From positions 1 through 64,000 of IMG/VR virus record IMGVR_UViG_3300043446_003513: a stretch of 64,000 nt of DNA. One strand, given 5' to 3'. This stretch comes from a virus. Below, piece by piece: positions 33,640 through 62,479 of the stretch. Position 1 is the stretch's first letter, and every line of letters begins with the position of its first letter. A model generated the notes under the pieces. That model saw nothing but the letters and a program-made list of their open reading frames with translations, searched no databases and had not been told where the DNA came from. The translations under genes and the position numbers were made by a program.

Positions 33640-33807
33640 ATGCTAACTAGAAAACACTTTCAGGCAACGGCAGAAATTCTAAATACCCACCGCAAATTTA
33701 TACACCCCGCCGCTTATCAAAGTCTAATCAAAGAATTTGCCAAAGTTTATTCGGAGGAAAATCCCTCGTTTGATCCCGTCAAATTTGCCAAGGTAGTTTA
33801 TAAATAA
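33640..33807 (+). CDS. Early hypothetical protein
   Basis: MLTRKHF...ENPSFDPVKF; similar to the C-terminus of 53289..53738. Confidence 0.65.
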   Translation: MLTRKHFQATAEILNTHRKFIHPAAYQSLIKEFAKVYSEENPSFDPVKFAKVVYK

Positions 33808-33855
33808 ATGTCGGTGGCTTCCGCTATAATCTAACCAGTAACGAAAGGAAACGAA

Positions 33856-34053
33856 ATGAATAAATACAAAGTGTTCTTAGAAACTTATGTTGAGGCAGAG
33901 GATTATCTCAAAGCCGCTTTCGCGGCGTTTCATAAGTTAGACCCATTGGGTGATGTTCAGTTTCAGTTTGAGATTGTAGATGTTCATCACTTTACCAGCG
34001 AAGGCTGGAAATCCCCCACGGGAATTGTTGAGATGTTAGAGAGGTATCGCTAA
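33856..34053 (+). CDS. Early hypothetical protein
   Basis: RBS aacgaaaggaa and its own promoter. Confidence 0.7.
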   Translation: MNKYKVFLETYVEAEDYLKAAFAAFHKLDPLGDVQFQFEIVDVHHFTSEGWKSPTGIVEMLERYR

Positions 34054-34608
34054 AATGTTTTTTGTAATCGTATTTGGTTTGGGTGTATTGACTACACTTC
34101 TCGGAACAGCTCTCGCATTATTGTTTTTTGATTTGGAGGACTAATGAAAAAATGTAGTTTGTGTCGCAAATATCGAATTCTAAAAAATGCGTATTTGTGT
34201 GCGGAGTGTAATCAGCTTATTCGCGGCGACCTCAAGTAGTAAAAAAGCCGAATATTTTCGTGTAACGCGTTCGGGCGTGTCGCCCAGTATTTTGCGGCCT
34301 CTTAGATCTTGTTACGACACGAAAAAATATTTCCCCAAAACTTGATTATTGTCGGTGCGTTGTGCTATTGTTTTCCTATCAACAAAAGGAGCTCATATGC
34401 GTAACTGCGTTTATTGTAAAAAAGAAACCACCCTCTTTACCACCGACGACGGTGAGTACTACTACCCCGTATGTAACGAGTGTGGATAGGAGCCCACGTT
34501 TTTGCGGCCCCCAAGATCTGCTTACGGCGCAACACGCCGATTTCCTGAAATTTGGATAATGTCGGTGCGGTGTGCTATTATCTGCTTATCAACTACGAAA
34601 GGAAAAAA

Positions 34609-34779
34609 ATGGATAATCTCTTCGATTCCTACGACGGCTCTGACGAGGCTTGGGCTGACCCAGCTGAGCAGGAGGATTGGGTCGATACCGACCTTTTCTA
34701 CGAGAGCGTTTCTGATTCGGACGCCCTCATCTCTATCGGTTGGGGCACCGATGAGGACTACGGGTACTACGGGGAGTAA
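34609..34779 (+). CDS. Very acidic small early protein (56 aa)
   Basis: RBS acgaaaggaa; 18 D/E and no K/R. Confidence 0.7.
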   Translation: MDNLFDSYDGSDEAWADPAEQEDWVDTDLFYESVSDSDALISIGWGTDEDYGYYGE

Positions 34780-34931
34780 TCCCCGCTAGGCCCACGTTTT
34801 TGGCGGCATTTTTTCTCTGTTACGGAGATCACAAAAAAATTCCTGGATTCTGTCCAGAAACGCCCAATTTTAGATTAGGTTATGTCGGTTAGCGATGATA
34901 CAATATACGCACCAACAACGAAAGGTAAAAA

Positions 34932-35225
34932 ATGGAACAACCGCTTATCAGCAAAATGCTTGACCACGCTATTGAGGCTATTCACTCTGATGATGTTACA
35001 GAATCTGCTCGTCGTATTATCAATACAGAATACGCAAATGTTGATGATAAGATTCGTGACCTCTTTGCTTACTCGCAAGAACTCTGCTCAATGTTCATCA
35101 CCAAATATCTTTGTGCTAACTACACCGATGAGCAAATCGAGCAACTACAAAATGATGTTGAGGAATATATGGGCTATCAACTCAGCGATGAAATTGAGCA
35201 ATTCCTACTTGCTGGGGGTGAGTAA
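34932..35225 (+). CDS. Early hypothetical protein
   Basis: RBS aacgaaagg; acidic. Confidence 0.7.
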   Translation: MEQPLISKMLDHAIEAIHSDDVTESARRIINTEYANVDDKIRDLFAYSQELCSMFITKYLCANYTDEQIEQLQNDVEEYMGYQLSDEIEQFLLAGGE

Positions 35226-35226
35226 T

Positions 35227-35439
35227 ATGGAGAATAAGTTTATTCACGAAACAACAGTTGTGTTTCAGCACGAAATCTCTCTTGATGAATTTTCAGAAAT
35301 TCTACAATATGGTGAGGAGCATATCAAATCAATGCTCGACACTATGGTGTATGAAATTTTCAAGTTGCGAGAAACTGAAGCCGAAGTAAACGAACACGGA
35401 ACCAAGGCGTTTTGTAGAATCAAGGAGGTGTCTCGATGA
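35227..35439 (+). CDS. Early hypothetical protein
   Basis: True start ATG 35227 (MENKFIH), following the previous stop. Confidence 0.6.
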   Translation: MENKFIHETTVVFQHEISLDEFSEILQYGEEHIKSMLDTMVYEIFKLRETEAEVNEHGTKAFCRIKEVSR

Positions 35440-35665
35440 GCTTAGAAACACTACAGTATCTTTGCGAAGTTTTCGATTGGTCAACTGATGTAGATAATGA
35501 AGGTCAACTAATTATTTACACGGGAATCTATAACTCGTAATGTTGGGAAGCCGCCCTTCGGGGCGGTGATCCCACTCTTTTGCGGGGTTTTTGATCGTGT
35601 TACGTAGTTATAGAAAATGTCCCTGCCATGTGGTAGAATAATCCCACCAAGAACGAAAGGCAACA

Positions 35666-36382
35666 ATGAAACTCAAACGCTCTAACGATAGGAAGGTCGC
35701 TAATGCGGTATCGAAAAACGGAAAAACACCCGCTATTGCTAATACTTTTGGGCTACCTGCTGGGAAGAATTTCTCATGTCCTGGCGCTACTAGCGTATGC
35801 GAAAGTGTCTGCTACGCAGGAAAGCTTGAAAAACTCTACAAAGGAGTAAAAAATAATCTTCTCCATAACTGGGAATTACTAAAAGACGCTGATTTTGATA
35901 GCATGCTCTTATTGCTTGACGATATGATTGTAGATTTCATTGATGATTGCACTAAGCGTAATGCGCCTAAATTATTCCGCATTCATTGGGATGGCGATTT
36001 CTTCTCCGATACTTATGCGTACGCATGGCGTGTAATTATTACTAATCACCCAGATGTTCAATTCTGGGTATACACTCGTGTAAAGTCTGCCGCCGAGATT
36101 CTTCAAGGCATTGAAAACTTATCTCTTTATTATTCTACCGATTCAGAAAATAAAGATATCGCTCAAGAATTATCTAATAAGGGCGTAAAGCTTGCATACC
36201 TTGCTACAACTTTTGCAATGGCAAAGGAAGACATGCTAAACCTTATCGGAAAGTCTGGTGTAAAGTGTCCTGAGAATAATAAAAAGATTCCGCTAATATC
36301 AGTCAACGGGTCTGCGTGTGTTACTTGCGGGCAATGCGTATATGAGCGTAACGATATTCTATTCTCCGCAACTAAAAAATAA
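35666..36382 (+). CDS. GP88-like Cys-rich phage protein
   Basis: CPGATSVCESVCYA, FRIHWDGDFFS, FWVYTR, ACVTCGQC. Confidence 0.75.
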   Translation: MKLKRSNDRKVANAVSKNGKTPAIANTFGLPAGKNFSCPGATSVCESVCYAGKLEKLYKGVKNNLLHNWELLKDADFDSMLLLLDDMIVDFIDDCTKRNAPKLFRIHWDGDFFSDTYAYAWRVIITNHPDVQFWVYTRVKSAAEILQGIENLSLYYSTDSENKDIAQELSNKGVKLAYLATTFAMAKEDMLNLIGKSGVKCPENNKKIPLISVNGSACVTCGQCVYERNDILFSATKK

Positions 36383-36671
36383 GGAAGGAAAAATAAATGG
36401 ATCAAGATGTAAAAGATTGGGAAGATCGTATAGAGCTCTCTCATATTGAACAATTAGAAAAGTTTGGCTGGTGTGTTTGCGAAGATACAAATGGAGAAGG
36501 CCAAATGGCAGAGGATTGCCCTCCTAATTAGGAGGGCCCACTATTTTGGGGGGTCTTGTCAAGTGTTACGGACATCACATTTATTTTCCTGGATTGCCTT
36601 TACAAATGTCGGTGGGGTCGAGTATAATATACCCATAACTTCATACAACTACTATCGAAAGGAAATGCCAC

Positions 36672-37091
36672 ATGGCAAGAGGTAAAGCAATAAATGTAAA
36701 GATTGCCACAGCAAAGGTAATCAAAGCACTAGAAACAAAGTTAGCACAAATCAAAAAAGACAAGGCTAACCAAAAATCTAACGAGGAAAAGTATAAGAAG
36801 GAAGTTGAGAAGTGGGGCAAAGAACTTGCCAAACTTGCGCTTACTAAAATTAGTAAGGCAGAAAATCTTTCTGCCACTACGCGATATAACAATGATGTTT
36901 ATATCAACTTTACTTTACCTGCTGGAACCATCACAGTACCTGATGAGCCCGAAAGAAATTTCGAGGTAATTTATGACCACAACTATCGTGAGATGGTAGA
37001 GGAAATTGAGAACGCAATTCGTATTCTCAAAATGACCGACGAGGAAACAGTAAGCACCTCAACTTACAACTCTATCGCTAAATATCTCTAA
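36672..37091 (+). CDS. Early hypothetical protein
   Basis: RBS cgaaaggaa; 139 aa; GC-rich hairpin follows at 37098-37126. Confidence 0.75.
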   Translation: MARGKAINVKIATAKVIKALETKLAQIKKDKANQKSNEEKYKKEVEKWGKELAKLALTKISKAENLSATTRYNNDVYINFTLPAGTITVPDEPERNFEVIYDHNYREMVEEIENAIRILKMTDEETVSTSTYNSIAKYL

Positions 37092-37144
37092 CTAGAATTG
37101 GGGAGGGACACGGACACCCTCCCCAAATATCCGCTAGGCGGTTT

Positions 37145-37273
37145 GGTGCTGAGCAACACCTAAGGTAAAAATGGCTACCTCACCTGAGTATGTGAAGGCT
37201 AAACTACTCACCAAGTGTATCTCCCAGTGCCATGGCGAGGGAGGCAGTTCCTGAGCATGAACTGAAACTGCTC
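37145..37273 (+). ncRNA. Tandem small H-type pseudoknot motifs (37178-37209, 37245-37273; degenerate copy at 37145)
   Basis: P1-CT-GAGYA-T-P1'-AAAC-TRCTC; P1 stems differ between copies but stay paired. Confidence 0.55.
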
Positions 37274-37296
37274 ACCACTACTAACAAAGGAAAGAA

Positions 37297-37557
37297 ATGG
37301 CAAACCGATATCGAGTAGAGATATTCGACGAAATGAAGTCAAACGATTTGACGATTTACTCAGATACAAATGTTGATAAGGATTTACTAACTGAAATGGT
37401 ATTTAGTAATATCAGCAAGTTTGAGGGAAATATCAGCGCATTCGTTTATGATAATGAAAAAAAGAAAAAGACAACTGTTCTAATCCTTCCTTGGGAAACT
37501 GTAAGAAACATCAACTCCAAAATTCGTTGGGGATATGAGGCGCTGGGTCTCTCCTGA
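37297..37557 (+). CDS. Early hypothetical protein
   Basis: RBS aaaggaaa. Confidence 0.7.
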   Translation: MANRYRVEIFDEMKSNDLTIYSDTNVDKDLLTEMVFSNISKFEGNISAFVYDNEKKKKTTVLILPWETVRNINSKIRWGYEALGLS

Positions 37558-37685
37558 GATCCAGTTGCCCACGTTTTTGTGGCCACATTTTATCTGTTAC
37601 GTACGCGATCAACATTCCCCAAAATAAGCTTTACAATGTCGTACCCTGCTGATATAATTCAACTAATCTAATCGAAAGGAAACCA

Positions 37686-38693
37686 ATGGCTCATAATCTC
37701 GAAGTCGAGAATGGCGAAGTTGCTTTTGCGCTACGCGGAACCCCCGCTTGGCACAATCTCGCCAATCGTATTTTCTCACAAGATGAGGAAGTATCTACAC
37801 AAACAATGCTATCAGAAGCGAAACTATCTAATTGGGATGTTCGCCTATCTCCAGTAACCGACCACATTCCTAGCGAATGGAATGATGTTAGCGGGGCACA
37901 ATATGTTCTTCGTACTAACCCATTCAATCAAGGAACTGATGTTCTATCCGTAGTTGGTTCTCGCTATCAAGTAATTCAGAATGAAGATTTATTTTCGTTT
38001 GCTGATAATGTTCTTGACGGGGATTCCCGTTGCGCTTGGGAATCTGCTGGTTCTCTAAAGAATGGTAAAGTTGTATTCGGCTCTCTTACTGTTCCCCGCG
38101 AAATGGTGTTAGACCCACAAGGTGCTAACGATACAACTAAACTGTATCTTATCGTTTGGACTTCACACGATGGTTCTGTTGCGGTTCAGGCAGCAATTAC
38201 TCCTGTTCGTGTTGTATGCCAAAATACTCTCAATCTTGCTATGCGTAACGCTAAACAATCATTCAAGATTCGCCACACGCAGACCGCTGACGGCAAGATT
38301 CAAGTTGCCCGCGAAACCCTCGGACTTACATTCGGATATTTTGATGAGTTTGAGAAACAAGCGCAGGAACTATTCAAGCAAGAGATTTCCGACAAGGATT
38401 TTTCTAAACTGCTAACCACTATCTATCCTAAGCCAGAGGCTGACGCTAAAAATGCTCTCAAGCGTTGGGAAAATAAAGTCGTATTGCTTGATGACCTTTA
38501 TTTCAATTCACCTACCAATGCTAACATCAAGGGCACAAAGTGGGGAGCGTTCAATGCGCTAACTGAACGCCTTGATTATTTCCGTTCAACTCGTAAGAGC
38601 AATACGGAATCTAAATGGGCTTCCGCTTCAGGGTTTGACCCAATCATTACTGCCGAAAAGAATAAGATTCTTCAGGTTGTAAAAGCGTTCTAG
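37686..38693 (+). CDS. DUF932/DUF945-family phage-plasmid protein
   Basis: MAHNLE, PAWH.L, VGSRY..IQNED.F, ESAGSL..G..VF, SHDGS, TPVRVVCQNTL, IRHT, GT.WGAFNALTE..D. Confidence 0.88.
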   Translation: MAHNLEVENGEVAFALRGTPAWHNLANRIFSQDEEVSTQTMLSEAKLSNWDVRLSPVTDHIPSEWNDVSGAQYVLRTNPFNQGTDVLSVVGSRYQVIQNEDLFSFADNVLDGDSRCAWESAGSLKNGKVVFGSLTVPREMVLDPQGANDTTKLYLIVWTSHDGSVAVQAAITPVRVVCQNTLNLAMRNAKQSFKIRHTQTADGKIQVARETLGLTFGYFDEFEKQAQELFKQEISDKDFSKLLTTIYPKPEADAKNALKRWENKVVLLDDLYFNSPTNANIKGTKWGAFNALTERLDYFRSTRKSNTESKWASASGFDPIITAEKNKILQVVKAF

Positions 38694-38699
38694 TACGCA

Positions 38700-38726
38700 A
38701 CTCCTGGGTATGAGTATAAACTGCCT
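38700..38726 (+). ncRNA. Further copy of the pseudoknot motif, directly 5' of tRNA-Asp
   Basis: actc-CT-GGGTA-T-gagt-at-AAAC-TGCCT. Confidence 0.5.
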
Positions 38727-38730
38727 TCCT

Positions 38731-38803
38731 GGCCCATTAGCTTAGCGGTTAAAGCGCTACCCTGTCACGGTAGAGATCGTCGGTTCAAATCCGATATGGG
38801 TCG
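38731..38803 (+). tRNA. tRNA-Asp(GTC)
   Basis: Acceptor GGCCCAT/ATGGGTC, anticodon loop CT-GTC-AC, T-loop GGTTCAAATCC; CCA not encoded. Confidence 0.92.
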
Positions 38804-38920
38804 CCCCCAAAATCATGGGTGCAAAAATGCTTTTACGCAACCCAAAAATATTTTCCCGAAATGCTTGATATTGTCAGTGGCCTCGTGTATACTTCTGCCA
38901 ACAGAACGAAAGGAATAAAT

Positions 38921-39382
38921 ATGGACGAGTTTGTAGAGTTATCATATGATGAGTGGGTAGATACTTATAGGCCTATCAAAAATCATATTGACCCAAATGC
39001 TTCTATGGACGGCTATATGTTTGAGACGTATGATTCAGAGAAAGACTTTGTAAAGCAATCTTTCCCCGAATATATTTGGACTTATGGCGATGGTGATGAC
39101 GGCGGTATGTATATTTGGAATGGTTATGGAATTGTAAATCGCATTGGTTATTTTGTAACTGAGATTCCTTGCCCGCCAAAAACTACTATTCAGGTATTGG
39201 TATCTCATAACTGGTATTACTGCGAGAGCTGCGGTTCAGAAACAGAAGACCCAGATAATCTAATTAGAGATTCATTTCAGGATATTGACTTAGATAAGTG
39301 TCCTAACTGTGCTACCGCTGAGGAGCTAACAACCGCTGGCTTTACTCAAATAAGAGAAGGGCTCTGGAGCGTGGGTCAGTAA
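38921..39382 (+). CDS. Early hypothetical protein with Zn-ribbon
   Basis: RBS aacgaaaggaa; CESC...CPNC. Confidence 0.7.
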   Translation: MDEFVELSYDEWVDTYRPIKNHIDPNASMDGYMFETYDSEKDFVKQSFPEYIWTYGDGDDGGMYIWNGYGIVNRIGYFVTEIPCPPKTTIQVLVSHNWYYCESCGSETEDPDNLIRDSFQDIDLDKCPNCATAEELTTAGFTQIREGLWSVGQ

Positions 39383-39460
39383 TGACCCACAGGATCGTGG
39401 CGAGACTTGTGCTTGTCAGTGGCAACTGCTATACTACACCCAATCAACGAAAGGAAGGCA

Positions 39461-39883
39461 ATGTACCAAGACAATAACCCAATTGTCGATAAACCGATAC
39501 CGACATTGGAAGAGCAATACAAGCAAGAAATGGAATTAAGATATGGTAGCGAAATTACTATATTAAACAATAAGTTACACGACCGTAATCAACGCATATC
39601 TGATTTCAACACTAACATCAACGCTGTTCGTGATTATCTAGTTGAGAATTATGATGAACTAGAAGGTCACGCTGATTCTATCGCCGACCTTCTTGGCGTA
39701 GATTTAACTAAAACAACTACTTTCACAGTTGTCGCAACTTACACAGTTGAAATTACTCACGACATTAATCATTTGCCAACTGACTTTGATTTCGCAATTG
39801 GTTGGTCTAATGGACTTGAATACAATGGTGAAGGCGACATTGAAATTATTGATTCAGACATAACTGAGATTCACGAGGTATAA
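39461..39883 (+). CDS. Early hypothetical protein
   Basis: RBS aacgaaaggaag; start ATG 39461. Confidence 0.7.
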   Translation: MYQDNNPIVDKPIPTLEEQYKQEMELRYGSEITILNNKLHDRNQRISDFNTNINAVRDYLVENYDELEGHADSIADLLGVDLTKTTTFTVVATYTVEITHDINHLPTDFDFAIGWSNGLEYNGEGDIEIIDSDITEIHEV

Positions 39884-40113
39884 TGTTCTATCGACTTAAG
39901 GCAAAGAATAAGGTCTCATTTAATGGGGCCTTATTCACCGCAGACATAAATGGACTTGACCCTGATAACTTTAACCCAAAAGAATATATATTTGAAATTG
40001 GAACGGGAAAGGTGGAAAAAGTTTCACGCTTGATTTCTCAATACAATTTAGATATACTTGTCGAATCGGACTACGCACCAAATCAATATGCGTATCTAGT
40101 GGAAGGGGTATAA
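39883..40113 (+). CDS. Early hypothetical protein
   Basis: Translationally coupled ORF. Confidence 0.65.
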   Translation: MFYRLKAKNKVSFNGALFTADINGLDPDNFNPKEYIFEIGTGKVEKVSRLISQYNLDILVESDYAPNQYAYLVEGV

Positions 40114-40258
40114 TGTCTGACAGTTATCAAGAAGGATACGCAGACGGCTATAAGTTTGCTCGTGATGAAATCATTGAGAAACTAAGAGAAATAGATATTG
40201 ACGATATCGATGGCTGGCTATTAGATAAGTTATCTGACATGATTGAGAGAAACGACAT

Positions 40259-40453
40259 ATGACAGAAGAATGGATCGGCTGCGATAAATGTTCAGTAGCA
40301 CAGGCTAGGTATTTATTGAGAGGTGTTGAAGGGGATTTATATTTCTGCCACCACCACTATAACAGTTTCAAGGGTGGCCTAGACAAATGGTCCTTTGAAA
40401 TGATAGAATTGAACAAGAAGGAAGAAACACCACAACTAGAAAAGGCGGAATAA
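40259..40453 (+). CDS. Small Zn-binding protein
   Basis: CDKC...LYFCHHH. Confidence 0.65.
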   Translation: MTEEWIGCDKCSVAQARYLLRGVEGDLYFCHHHYNSFKGGLDKWSFEMIELNKKEETPQLEKAE

Positions 40454-40454
40454 T

Positions 40455-40859
40455 ATGGGAGACAGAGCAAACTTTGGATTTGTGCAGCCTAACGGTCACA
40501 CAATTGTATTGTATGGGCACTGGGCTGGTGAGAATATGCTAGCTAATTTAGCAGATGCAGTTAATGCAGCTCGTCCTCGTTGGGGCGATTCATCATATGC
40601 GACACGTATTGCAATTAGTCAATTAATTGGCAATGAATGGAACGGTGAGCTTGGCTGGGGTTTGGCCGTAGATGAGATTCTAGACAATGAGCACCACATT
40701 GCAATTGTTGATTTTGAACAGCAAATATTTTCTCTTCATCCTGAGGATGAGCACGTCAACAAGGATAACAAGGTTAGGGGAATGCGTAATGAACCTAAAT
40801 TCACCATGGACCTAGATTCATTTGTGAATAAATATGGAGACGTTGTAGTTGGCGTTTGA
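40455..40859 (+). CDS. Early hypothetical protein
   Basis: MGDRAN...LYGHWAG...RWGDSSYATRI. Confidence 0.7.
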   Translation: MGDRANFGFVQPNGHTIVLYGHWAGENMLANLADAVNAARPRWGDSSYATRIAISQLIGNEWNGELGWGLAVDEILDNEHHIAIVDFEQQIFSLHPEDEHVNKDNKVRGMRNEPKFTMDLDSFVNKYGDVVVGV

Positions 40860-40885
40860 CATATTAGCCGAAGTTATTCTATAAT
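40856..40885 (+). promoter_or_regulatory. Consensus SigA-type promoter
   Basis: TTGACA-N18-TATAAT. Confidence 0.8.
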
Positions 40886-40889
40886 ATGA

Positions 40890-41038
40890 ATAGGTCTTCC
40901 AGGGCCTATTCATTATAGGTAAGGTGCCGCTACTAGGTCTATCACCGAGTGGCTAAGTAAGGCAAGCGTTCTTCCTTTCGTTTCGCTAGCAGCCTACCAC
41001 ATTAATCCCCGCAGCTTATGTTGCGGGGATCTTATTTT
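40890..41038 (+). ncRNA. Candidate ~150-nt sRNA with a loop-exposed anti-RBS sequence
   Basis: Own promoter and terminator (atccccgca/tgcggggat, 41005-41030); no credible ORF; loop ttcttcctttcgttt closed by gcaagcg/cgctagc. Confidence 0.65.
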
Positions 41039-41099
41039 GCCCATAAAAAATAGGGTAACAACTTTGTCTTACGGAGTCAAGTTCAATTTTCCCGAAATT

Positions 41100-41115
41100 T
41101 GTGATAACGATCACA
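41100..41115. promoter_or_regulatory. CRP/GlxR-type site
   Basis: TGTGA-taacga-TCACA, perfect consensus. Confidence 0.55.
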
Positions 41116-41178
41116 CGAAATTGGGTGGACAATTGTCAGTGTCTTGATATATAATTATGCCATAACGAAAGGAAAATT

Positions 41179-41427
41179 ATGGAAGAAGTATATGTTGAAA
41201 GAGTAGAATCTTTAGTTAACTATATAGAGATACACTTAACTAGTTTACAGCAAGACCTAGATAAACTATCTGAGCAAATGGAAAAGTATGATGAGGATTC
41301 TAAGGCTCACCGCTCTATGGATGAAGAGTATCTTTATTTAAGTGGACAGATTACTGCCGCCAGCCATTTATTGTCGGTGGTCAATGATACAATGGTCACC
41401 TGGAAAAGGGAGAAAAATAATGGCTGA
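41179..41427 (+). CDS. Early hypothetical protein
   Basis: RBS aacgaaaggaa. Confidence 0.7.
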   Translation: MEEVYVERVESLVNYIEIHLTSLQQDLDKLSEQMEKYDEDSKAHRSMDEEYLYLSGQITAASHLLSVVNDTMVTWKREKNNG

Positions 41428-42440: not shown

Positions 42441-42540
42441 GATCTTAAGGGCAAGAAAAATTGCTTACGTATTTATGTCAAAATGCCCTTGACGGGTTTG
42501 CAAATTCAATATATAATATTAATATAGCGAAAGGATAACA

Positions 42541-42813
42541 ATGGAAACTTTAACACTGGACCCCCGTCTTCAACGACAGGTTGAACTTGGGAGCTCTGGC
42601 CTAGATATCATTCATGGCGAGCTGAAGAATCTCATGTTACAAGCAGAAGTACATTTAGAAGCTGCCAGGGAGGTTGAGGAGGAATCTGGCTCTGCAATTG
42701 ATTCCATGGAGCGGACGTACTGGGAGGGACACCTAGACGCCTTGTCAGATATCTACAGTCTCACATATGCATTGGCATTCGAAATTCAAGAAAGGGATTC
42801 TCGTGAAGTATAA
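42541..42813 (+). CDS. Early hypothetical protein
   Basis: RBS cgaaagga. Confidence 0.65.
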   Translation: METLTLDPRLQRQVELGSSGLDIIHGELKNLMLQAEVHLEAAREVEEESGSAIDSMERTYWEGHLDALSDIYSLTYALAFEIQERDSREV

Positions 42814-54222: not shown

Positions 54223-54523
54223 TTTTCTTTCTTATTCTTTTCCATATATCTGGTGTTTTGTGAAGATTCTTAGTTTTATCTACAGATCCAGAGTTTAAAT
54301 AAACTCCACCCCACACCCCATATTCATTATTTTCTATACCAGACTGATAGCAAAGTTTAGAAACTGGGCATCCTAAGCATGCCTCATCTACATTTCTAGC
54401 TATATTTTGATCAATTTCATATTTATCAAAAAATAGATTTGTATCCATTCCCTTACATACTGCTATGTCATACCAATTAAAATCTTCTTTATCTATACCT
54501 AAACTATCTAAAATGTTTGACAT
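54215..54523 (-). CDS. whiB: WhiB-family Fe-S transcription factor
   Basis: AVCKG.D..LFF, CLGCPVSKLC, EYGVWGG. Confidence 0.9.
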   Translation of the reverse strand: MSNILDSLGIDKEDFNWYDIAVCKGMDTNLFFDKYEIDQNIARNVDEACLGCPVSKLCYQSGIENNEYGVWGGVYLNSGSVDKTKNLHKTPDIWKRIRKKNG

Positions 54524-54737: not shown

Positions 54738-54758
54738 TTTTTTCTCCGAACTTTATAG

Positions 54759-54831
54759 CTGGCCCACCTGGACTCGAACCAGGAACCTATGAGTTAACAG
54801 CTCACCGCTCTGCCTATTGAGCTATGGGCCA
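54759..54831 (-). tRNA. tRNA-Asn(GTT)
   Basis: TGGCCCA/TGGGCCA acceptor, CT-GTT-AA loop, GGTTCGAGTCC. Confidence 0.93.
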
Positions 54832-60386: not shown

Positions 60387-60434
60387 TGATCCCTCCTTAA
60401 ATGTTTATAATCATTATACCATTTATATATTTTG

Positions 60435-60506
60435 AGCCCCCAGAGGGATTTGAACCCCCGACCTACGCATTACAAGTGCGTTGCTCTACCTCTGAGCTAT
60501 GAAGGC
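60435..60506 (-). tRNA. tRNA-Thr(TGT)
   Basis: Cloverleaf; anticodon arm ACGCA-CT-TGT-AA-TGCGT. Confidence 0.9.
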
Positions 60507-60510
60507 GTTG

Positions 60511-60583
60511 CGCCTTTGGCAGGAATCGAACCTGCGACCTAATGCTTAGAAGGCATCCGCTCTGTCCCCTGAGCTACAAAGGC
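60511..60583 (-). tRNA. tRNA-Arg(TCT)
   Basis: GCCTTTG/CAAAGGC acceptor; CT-TCT-AA loop. Confidence 0.92.
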
Positions 60584-62385: not shown

Positions 62386-62405
62386 AAAATCCTTTCAATT
62401 AATTG

Positions 62406-62479
62406 TACACCAGGTAGGACTTGAACCTACGATAACCGAATTATGAGTTCGGGGCCTTGACCAACTTGGCTACTGGTGC
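62406..62479 (-). tRNA. tRNA with CAT anticodon (Ile2 or elongator Met)
   Basis: CCGAA-CT-CAT-AA-TTCGG arm; lacks the GGG/CCC initiator stem. Confidence 0.88.

Follow-up and report, generated by a model that had tools for sequence, protein, structure and literature searches.

Arms of many small genes, each with a strong promoter, a uniform strong ribosome-binding site (RBS) and a terminator, are known from the PeSLs of T4-type phages and from the host-takeover module of SPO1. On the chromosomes of Gram-positive bacteria and actinobacteria, Hfq-independent small RNAs such as RsaE/RoxS and the 6C RNA use pyrimidine-rich hairpin loops to pair with the purine-rich Shine-Dalgarno (SD) sequences of several messenger RNAs (mRNAs). 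The temporal control of large lytic phages is known chiefly from proteins, among them sigma factors, RegA and RegB. In phage T4, the translational repressor RegA competes with ribosomes for about 30 mRNAs, and the endoribonuclease RegB cuts GGAG in early SD sequences while sparing late ones (PMC3014915). The c4 antisense RNA of phages P1 and P7 presents complementary sequences in loops, which pair around the RBS and block translation (PMC12197685). Here we analyse positions 1 to 64,000 of the IMG/VR virus record IMGVR_UViG_3300043446_003513 (the whole 64-kb stretch is called the window below), in which a small-RNA locus at 40856-41038 presents, in a hairpin loop, the complement of an RBS shared by the early genes of the same phage. 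Judged from its sequence and that of its relatives, the element is a genuine structured non-coding RNA with its own promoter and terminator, and it represents a new, widespread and covariation-supported family of phage small RNAs that was previously undescribed. It is also a candidate repressor of the early genes as a class.

The elements of the locus, to which we refer throughout, are the following.

40856..40885, plus strand: promoter of the small RNA, with -35 TTGACA at 40856-40861, an 18-nt spacer and -10 TATAAT at 40880-40885 (12/12 match)
40886-40894 pairing with 40905-40913, plus strand: optional 5' hairpin, supported by covariation
40915..41002, plus strand: conserved core forming a three-way junction (covariance model R1, 71.1 bits; single copy in the genome)
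40919-40925 pairing with 40992-40998, plus strand: helix P1, supported by covariation
40926-40931 pairing with 40948-40953, tip 40936-40938 with 40944-40946, plus strand: helix P2, supported by covariation
40954-40961, plus strand: J2/3 (UAAGUAAG), the unpaired joiner UAA-UAA-GC
40962-40968 pairing with 40984-40990, plus strand: helix P3, supported by covariation
40969..40983, plus strand: P3 loop UUCUUCCUUUCGUUU, with the anti-RBS core UUCCUUUCGUU at 40972-40982 and the octamer CUUUCGUU at 40975-40982
41005..41038, plus strand: intrinsic terminator, whose 11-bp stem (7 G-C pairs) closes a 4-nt loop and is followed by a T run

A sequence-only reading of the window had proposed that a TTGACA/TATAAT promoter and a terminator enclose about 150 nt without a credible open reading frame (ORF), and each part of that proposal was borne out. 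The promoter agrees at all twelve positions, the hairpin at 41005-41030 with its T run is the sole terminator-like site in 39.5-42.5 kb, and no plus-strand ORF of at least 25 amino acids (aa) lies in the roughly 150 nt between them; at the level of prediction, this is a transcription unit of its own without coding capacity. The -35 element overlaps the stop codon of the upstream 134-aa gene, and the promoter lacks the TGTC box, unlike the promoters of its predicted targets. Relatives carry an extended -10 element (TGnTATAAT) at the equivalent place, and promoter function therefore seems to be kept by different means. They also keep the terminator hairpin with its U run, the sequence of which varies freely. 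A -10 element stands ahead of the core in every subgroup, including those that lack the 5' hairpin, where it lies just upstream of P1. The hairpin itself is absent from several subgroups; 76.5% of its cells are paired, 8 of its 9 pairs show double changes, and its covariation score was reached by none of 500 shuffles.

On the plus strand, 40892-41038 folds at -52.5 kcal/mol (z = -4.0), against a z of -1.6 for the minus strand. An exact 29-mer scan of IMG/VR found nothing, and relatives were reached through the neighbouring 134-aa protein, which at 66-77% identity identified 52 related IMG/VR loci. All 51 syntenic loci that cover the spot contain one homologue each, scoring 49.9-101 bits with the covariance model built here, and of 64 further IMG/VR loci the model confirmed the RNA in 60. 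IMG/VR was scanned with two patterns, one requiring the loop motif and one blind to it, and each matched at least about 120 contigs; more than 110 phage contigs there carry a homologue, each in a single copy, and the family counts more than 120 IMG/VR contigs in all. The consensus runs from P1 through P2, the unpaired UAA-UAA-GC joiner and P3 to the terminator. RNAalifold recovered only P1 from the MAFFT core alignment, in which one subgroup was misaligned, and a covariance-model alignment was used instead. With the MAFFT alignment, 89.6% of the cells are paired and 13 pairs show compensatory changes, a level that 0/500 shuffles reach, while slid controls give 25-46%. The model-fitted alignment, which leans towards the model, gives 92.2% of cells paired and 16 pairs with compensatory changes; over both alignments the slid controls range from 23 to 46% paired.

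The family appears to be confined to phages. Searched against Rfam 15 at gathering cut-offs, the whole window yielded 5 transfer RNAs (tRNAs) only, and a permissive scan of 40700-41250 gave at best 19 bits or less, where the cut-offs start at 37. Among 185,579 species genomes, a pattern containing the exact loop core had 3 hits, all on contigs of about 3 kb in metagenome-assembled genomes of unrelated taxa (labelled Bacteroidia, Polynucleobacter and 'bacterium'). These contigs (L230, L231 and L232) carry the phage RNA at 60.8-100.7 bits and are probably mis-binned phage fragments; because the matches to this pattern among species genomes are mis-binned phage only, we regard the RNA as phage-specific. 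The distant cultured relative Streptomyces phage EGole has neither a homologue of the RNA nor an enrichment of the motif. Two other structural ideas were dropped: a pseudoknot between J2/3 (AAGUAAA) and the loop (UUUACUU) was paired in 83.7% of cells with 0 compensatory changes and with uncompensated G-to-A changes, and a hammerhead, other ribozyme or signal-recognition-particle-like interpretation of the GGU/GCC plus AGCA motif, made by eye, found no Rfam support.

Distal P3 pairs covary (CG, GC, UA, AU) and thereby place the motif in a loop of 13-25 nt, the length of which varies among homologues. The sequence-only reading had named an unconserved loop as an objection to its own proposal, and conservation proved to be strict, with CUUUCGUU invariant across all main-clade homologues. 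The base 5' of the octamer is mostly C; one subgroup has U, which makes a G-U wobble opposite the RBS, and a second has A, a mismatch. Over 80 homologues, the loop core has a mean unpaired probability of 0.67, compared with 0.42 for the whole RNA. The stem (gcaagcg/cgctagc) that had been proposed to present the loop matches the comparative P3 helix, although the minimum-energy fold of the single sequence shifts it, pairs CGUUU and leaves UUCUUCCUUU open. The idea that the anti-RBS sequence is displayed in a hairpin loop nevertheless stands, as P3 covaries and the sequence is predicted to be largely unpaired; together with the invariant octamer, this describes a conserved, accessible seed within a structured RNA.

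What the seed could bind is apparent from the rest of the genome. The exact 11-mer AACGAAAGGAA occurs on the plus strand at 33840, 38905, 39446 and 41164 and on the minus strand only at 40972, opposite the loop, while the reversed pattern has 0 matches as a control (all in the 106,679-bp genome). The chance expectation for a given 11-mer is about 0.05 over both strands of 107 kb. Copies with one mismatch are all on the plus strand within 31.9-41.2 kb and are followed by an ATG 5-8 nt on, and in total four exact and at least six near-exact sites lie 5-8 nt before early start codons between 33.8 and 42.5 kb, as follows.

33840..33850, plus strand: predicted target AACGAAAGGAA; the ATG of a 65-aa early gene with the promoter TGTCGGTG-N8-TATAAT follows after 5 nt
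34594..34604, plus strand: predicted target TACGAAAGGAA, 10/11
34917..34927, plus strand: predicted target AACGAAAGGTA, 10/11
35652..35662, plus strand: predicted target AACGAAAGGCA, 10/11
36654..36664, plus strand: predicted target ATCGAAAGGAA, 10/11
37671..37681, plus strand: predicted target ATCGAAAGGAA, 10/11
38905..38915, plus strand: predicted target, exact 11-mer, ATG at 38921; duplex of -15.7 kcal/mol
39446..39456, plus strand: predicted target, exact 11-mer within 12 contiguous complementary bases, ATG at 39461; best-ranked, -18.2 kcal/mol
41164..41174, plus strand: predicted target, exact 11-mer, ATG at 41179; first gene downstream of the small RNA
42528..42535, plus strand: weaker predicted target CGAAAGGA, 8 nt, ATG at 42541

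The target at 39446 belongs to the leading gene of an operon whose end lies just 5' of the small RNA. The complementarity of 40972-40982 to the four perfect sites had been recognised in the sequence-only reading, which also listed matches of 8-10 nt at 34595, 34917, 35652, 36656, 37673 and 42528; all of them were found again. In a walk along the RNA in steps of 8-mers, strand-biased complements appear only for 40972-40982 (11:0, 10:0, 7:1, 6:0), and they lie at early starts.

These sites also share a promoter type. Nine sites of the AACGAAAGGAA type lie behind a TGTC(G/A)GTG-N8-TAnnnT promoter, with conserved TTACG and TTTCCnGAAAT boxes further upstream, in keeping with the earlier suggestion that most targets are the first gene behind a PafBC-type promoter. 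We take the TGTC(G/A)GTG-N8-TAnnnT pattern to be the RecA-NDp motif by which PafBC activates its targets; the TGTC box is conserved in all three lineages of the phage family. A RecA-NDp motif is named in PMC6789036. In the phage, the Pfam Lsr2 N-terminal and WYL models found no match, and a host activator would be needed for these promoters because the phage has no WYL-domain gene. Example cassettes within 33800-41160 are found at 33809-33831, 38872-38894 and 41134-41155, and others at loci L243, L250 and L260. Counted from the -10 box, the motif begins after a median of 13 nt, and therefore about 5-7 nt from the predicted 5' end of the mRNA, with the start codon another 7-9 nt on. A conserved TTTGCCCGCA-like box at 41039-41050, directly 3' of the terminator in most relatives, may be an upstream element of the next cassette.

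Part of the motif seems to serve no ribosomal purpose. In the first 43 distinct related loci, GAAAGG sites ahead of start codons show the profile A (79%), A (78%), C (69%), GAAAGG, A (65%), A (65%), and the C before GAAAGG is kept in 69% of 757 sites over 165 main-clade loci. Divided by strand, the main-clade loci show this C at 76% of 573 early-strand sites and at 0/11 sites on the opposite strand, which agrees with the earlier claim that the AACG extension lies outside the pairing with 16S ribosomal RNA. The opposite-strand, late genes of the phage use AGGAG, GGAGG or AAGGAG as their SD. The AACG extension thus appears, from these comparisons, to be private to the early class and not a requirement of the host ribosome. 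The 11-bp duplex of loop and RBS is calculated at -13.4 kcal/mol, compared with -9.8 kcal/mol for the RBS with an actinobacterial-type 16S tail, a sequence that may not be the host's.

Relatives with other loops provide a natural comparison. The loop-blind scan retrieved homologues of the scaffold with different P3 loops at 43-58 bits, in which the whole scaffold aligns and only the loop is replaced. Eight contigs, with genomes of about 104 kb, form a sister clade that carries CCUCGAAAA, CCUAGAAAU or CCUUGAAAU in this position. Of its 25 TGTC-box cassettes, 12 are leaderless, with the ATG 6-9 nt after the -10 box (loci L250:765-10790, L243, L241 and L249); leaderless mRNAs are an actinobacterial trait, and the window's own clade differs here in that its early genes have leaders. 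The motif AnCGAAAG follows none of these 25 cassettes, compared with 622 of 1126 in the main clade, and a complete sister-clade genome contains 0 copies of AACGAAAGG. A further lineage, G001, with the loop CUGGGGGUGUU, has leadered early genes with the RBS AAAGAAAGGAA, where, over 24 sites, GAAAGG is preceded by A in 79% and by C in 12%; this A is the choice complementary to 16S. It appears, then, that the C that mismatches the ribosome occurs where, and only where, the loop of the RNA offers a matching G, and we see in this pattern the strongest support for pairing. As a separate observation, the sister-clade P3 loop GCCUAGAAAU repeats, as the same sequence and not as its complement, 8 nt between SD and ATG in GGCUAGAAAUG, a match that concerns one early gene (L243:3-50 and L250:3153-3200) and is possibly a coincidence.

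We consider it an even call whether the RNA acts as a trans-acting, base-pairing anti-RBS repressor of the early class. From the RNA family, its fold, the exposure of its loop, the RBS specific to the early class and the coupling of loop and RBS between clades, all of which the comparison of genomes supports, we infer that the RNA would be produced, would pair in vivo and would repress its targets at some stage of infection. An RNA of about 110-150 nt would be transcribed from a housekeeping-type promoter without the TGTC box of its targets, and its three-way-junction scaffold would present the P3 loop of 13-25 nt. The loop sequence UUCCUUUCGUU would then pair with AACGAAAGGAA at roughly +6 to +16 of short early leaders of about 25-30 nt. 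This duplex, predicted to be more stable than the helix of SD and 16S, would mask the SD and exclude 30S subunits, so that translation of the early class would be lowered as a group and mRNA decay probably raised too. Middle and late genes with AGGAG or GGAGG as SD would be spared. The mode of action may be that of a late off-switch, of a threshold filter from the start of infection or of another kind.

Several results weigh against this proposal. For the coupling of loop and RBS there are one or two contrasts between clades, which could go back to a single historical event. When loop flanks were compared with RBS flanks, base-by-base compensation was not found, and own pairs had no clear advantage over swapped ones, with weak trends only. 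The covariation in related phages that the sequence-only reading had suggested as a check is hence present between clades and not seen base by base in the flanks. About a third of the family (some 41 loci) has UUAC in place of UUCC while the RBS keeps GGAA, which leaves a contiguous pairing of 8-12 nt, and the variant loops of the sister lineages have no complementary targets that we could find in their own phages. A ranking of targets, likewise suggested beforehand and made here with RNAduplex, does place early genes on top, with 21 targets at -12 kcal/mol or better; shuffled versions of the CU-rich loop come close, with an average of 10.8 such targets and a maximum of 26. Energy counts alone are not evidence, because a CU-rich loop will in general find partners among purine-rich initiation regions. 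Nor is a delayed off-switch self-evident, as the promoter looks constitutive. Moreover, the 5' hairpin stem covaries up to the nucleotide directly after the -10 TATAAT, which is odd for a transcript that starts 7 nt downstream and leaves the true 5' end and the biogenesis of the RNA uncertain. There may be a second, longer transcript, arising by read-through or from a 3' untranslated region, or the hairpin may be a terminator or processing hairpin of the upstream operon. Finally, invariant unpaired nucleotides occur elsewhere in the RNA (UAA-UAA-GC, GGUGC, AGCAGCC), and the retention of the scaffold with loops that do not match an RBS, together with the invariant junction nucleotides, suggests an additional partner or function.

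These last points lead to an alternative that we hold to be unlikely but that deserves to be taken seriously, in which the junction binds, titrates or guides a phage or host protein, the loop serves this partner, and the complementarity to the RBS is incidental or secondary. The many invariant positions outside the loop speak for it, as do the absence of a fine covariation of loop and RBS and the persistence of the scaffold, at the bit scores given above, with the unrelated loops CCUCGAAAA, CCUAGAAAU and CUGGGGGUGUU, which lack identifiable targets in their own phages. A fixed linear 8-mer within a loop of 13-25 nt, however, fits linear recognition better than a tertiary contact, and the 8-11 nt that are complemented are precisely the class-specific part of the early RBS, which the RBS lacks in lineages with a different loop; enriched complements exist for this segment of the RNA alone. 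Alternatively, the loop could be a general mimic of the anti-SD, its CCUUUC imitating the 16S tail and binding GAAAGG-type SDs of the host and also of the phage, so that the RNA would help to shut off the host and the early genes would not be its intended targets. The 3' tail of actinobacterial-type 16S RNA is CCUCCUUUCU, which may not be that of the host, and UCCUUUC is common to this tail and the loop; CU-rich loops pair with many initiation regions, and the promoter is constitutive-looking. We nonetheless judge such mimicry distinctly improbable: the 16S tail contains nothing equivalent to the CGUU of the invariant CUUUCGUU, this CGUU matches the tag of the early genes, which other phage genes lack, and the sister lineages, which are presumably actinophages as well given their PafBC-type promoters and leaderless starts, dropped the motif entirely.

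An action in cis seems very improbable to us. The order of a junction followed by a terminator, with highly conserved junction nucleotides, is what one would expect of a leader or riboswitch-like sensor in which an aptamer gates read-through into the downstream gene, or of a 3'-untranslated-region element of the upstream operon, and the covariation of the 5' hairpin into the -10 box hints at read-through transcripts from the upstream gene. Yet the next gene has a complete promoter cassette and an RBS of its own (41126-41174), every subgroup has a -10 element ahead of the core, the alignments show no conserved antiterminator pairing while the terminator sequences vary freely, and Rfam returned no riboswitch match. 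Hardly credible, in turn, is the idea that AACGAAAGGAA occurs on the minus strand by chance or as the RBS of a small peptide encoded there. In the window, the motif on that strand is indeed followed by a TTG at a distance of 6 nt, but the frame of this TTG has only 7 codons, relatives have no start codon at that spacing, and no promoter cassette lies upstream on that strand. The minus strand also folds poorly, indels do not come in threes, and the covariation backs the plus-strand RNA, so that the peptide, raised beforehand as a possible objection, fails with its short and unconserved frame; as to chance, about 0.05 matches are expected per genome, against conservation of the motif in more than 110 contigs.

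A further and more doubtful step can be proposed. We speculate that the RNA could be a modular, 'addressable' regulator, in which a conserved junction chassis, to which a phage or host protein may bind, carries a swappable P3 loop that selects the class of mRNAs to be silenced, and that the private AAC extension of the SD evolved in the early genes of the main clade. In that case, one RNA would silence the host-takeover class without touching late or host messages, and a temporal gene class would be defined by an RBS code that an RNA reads. A single small RNA addressing a gene class through a private RBS code would constitute a new design of developmental switch and a natural case of orthogonal RBS addressing. 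Our literature search found no description of such a system.

The genomic setting is that of a freshwater actinobacterial phage whose relatives are abundant, uncultured freshwater actinophages. The 64-kb window is the first part of a complete phage genome in IMG/VR, of the size given above, with direct terminal repeats of 127 bp and 35% G+C. A WhiB-family gene at 54302-54475 on the minus strand matches Pfam PF02467 over its cut-off (45.1 bits); WhiB is a hallmark of Actinobacteria and their phages, and the gene points to an actinobacterial host despite the low G+C content. Weak DNA similarity of other parts of the window to Streptomyces phages fits such a host. Searches for an integrase or a resolvase gave no match, and the phage is therefore probably virulent. 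Between 31.9 and 44 kb, the genes lie on the plus strand, are small and mostly of unknown function, and have a promoter and a terminator for each unit, while those of the remaining genome lie chiefly on the minus strand. Within this early arm, the 64-aa protein encoded at 40259-40450 (plus strand) matches DUF7455 at 34.4 bits, and the sole match of the 134-aa gene upstream of the small RNA is PHROG 31860, of unknown function. The five tRNA genes (Asp, Asn, Thr, Arg, Met) are located at 38730-38806, 54758-54831, 60434-60583 and 62405-62479; tRNA-Asp lies within the early arm, just upstream of one target cassette.

With the PeSL and SPO1 arrangements, the locus shares the situation of its targets in an arm of small genes with their own promoter, RBS and terminator. 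We know of no small RNA complementary to a common RBS in those systems, and the literature search found none either. The c4 RNA of phages P1 and P7 is likewise phage-encoded and structured, and the trans-acting pairing of loop and RBS is, in the present case, predicted from sequence. It is, however, processed from the same operon as its one target mRNA (icd-ant) and belongs to the immunity circuit of a temperate phage, whereas about ten dispersed transcription units share the target here, and there is no sequence or Rfam relationship between the two. A c4-like role in immunity is unlikely because the phage has no integrase or resolvase. The comparison with T4 RegA and RegB would be one of function only, the common logic being a class-wide post-transcriptional control at prereplicative or early initiation regions; in T4 this control is exerted by proteins, while here an RNA loop would discriminate among messages and the early SDs carry a private extension. 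RsaE/RoxS and the 6C RNA have other folds and motifs (CCC/UCCC), and their Rfam models gave no match here; unlike in these RNAs, the seed of the phage RNA reaches past the SD into a phage-specific tag.

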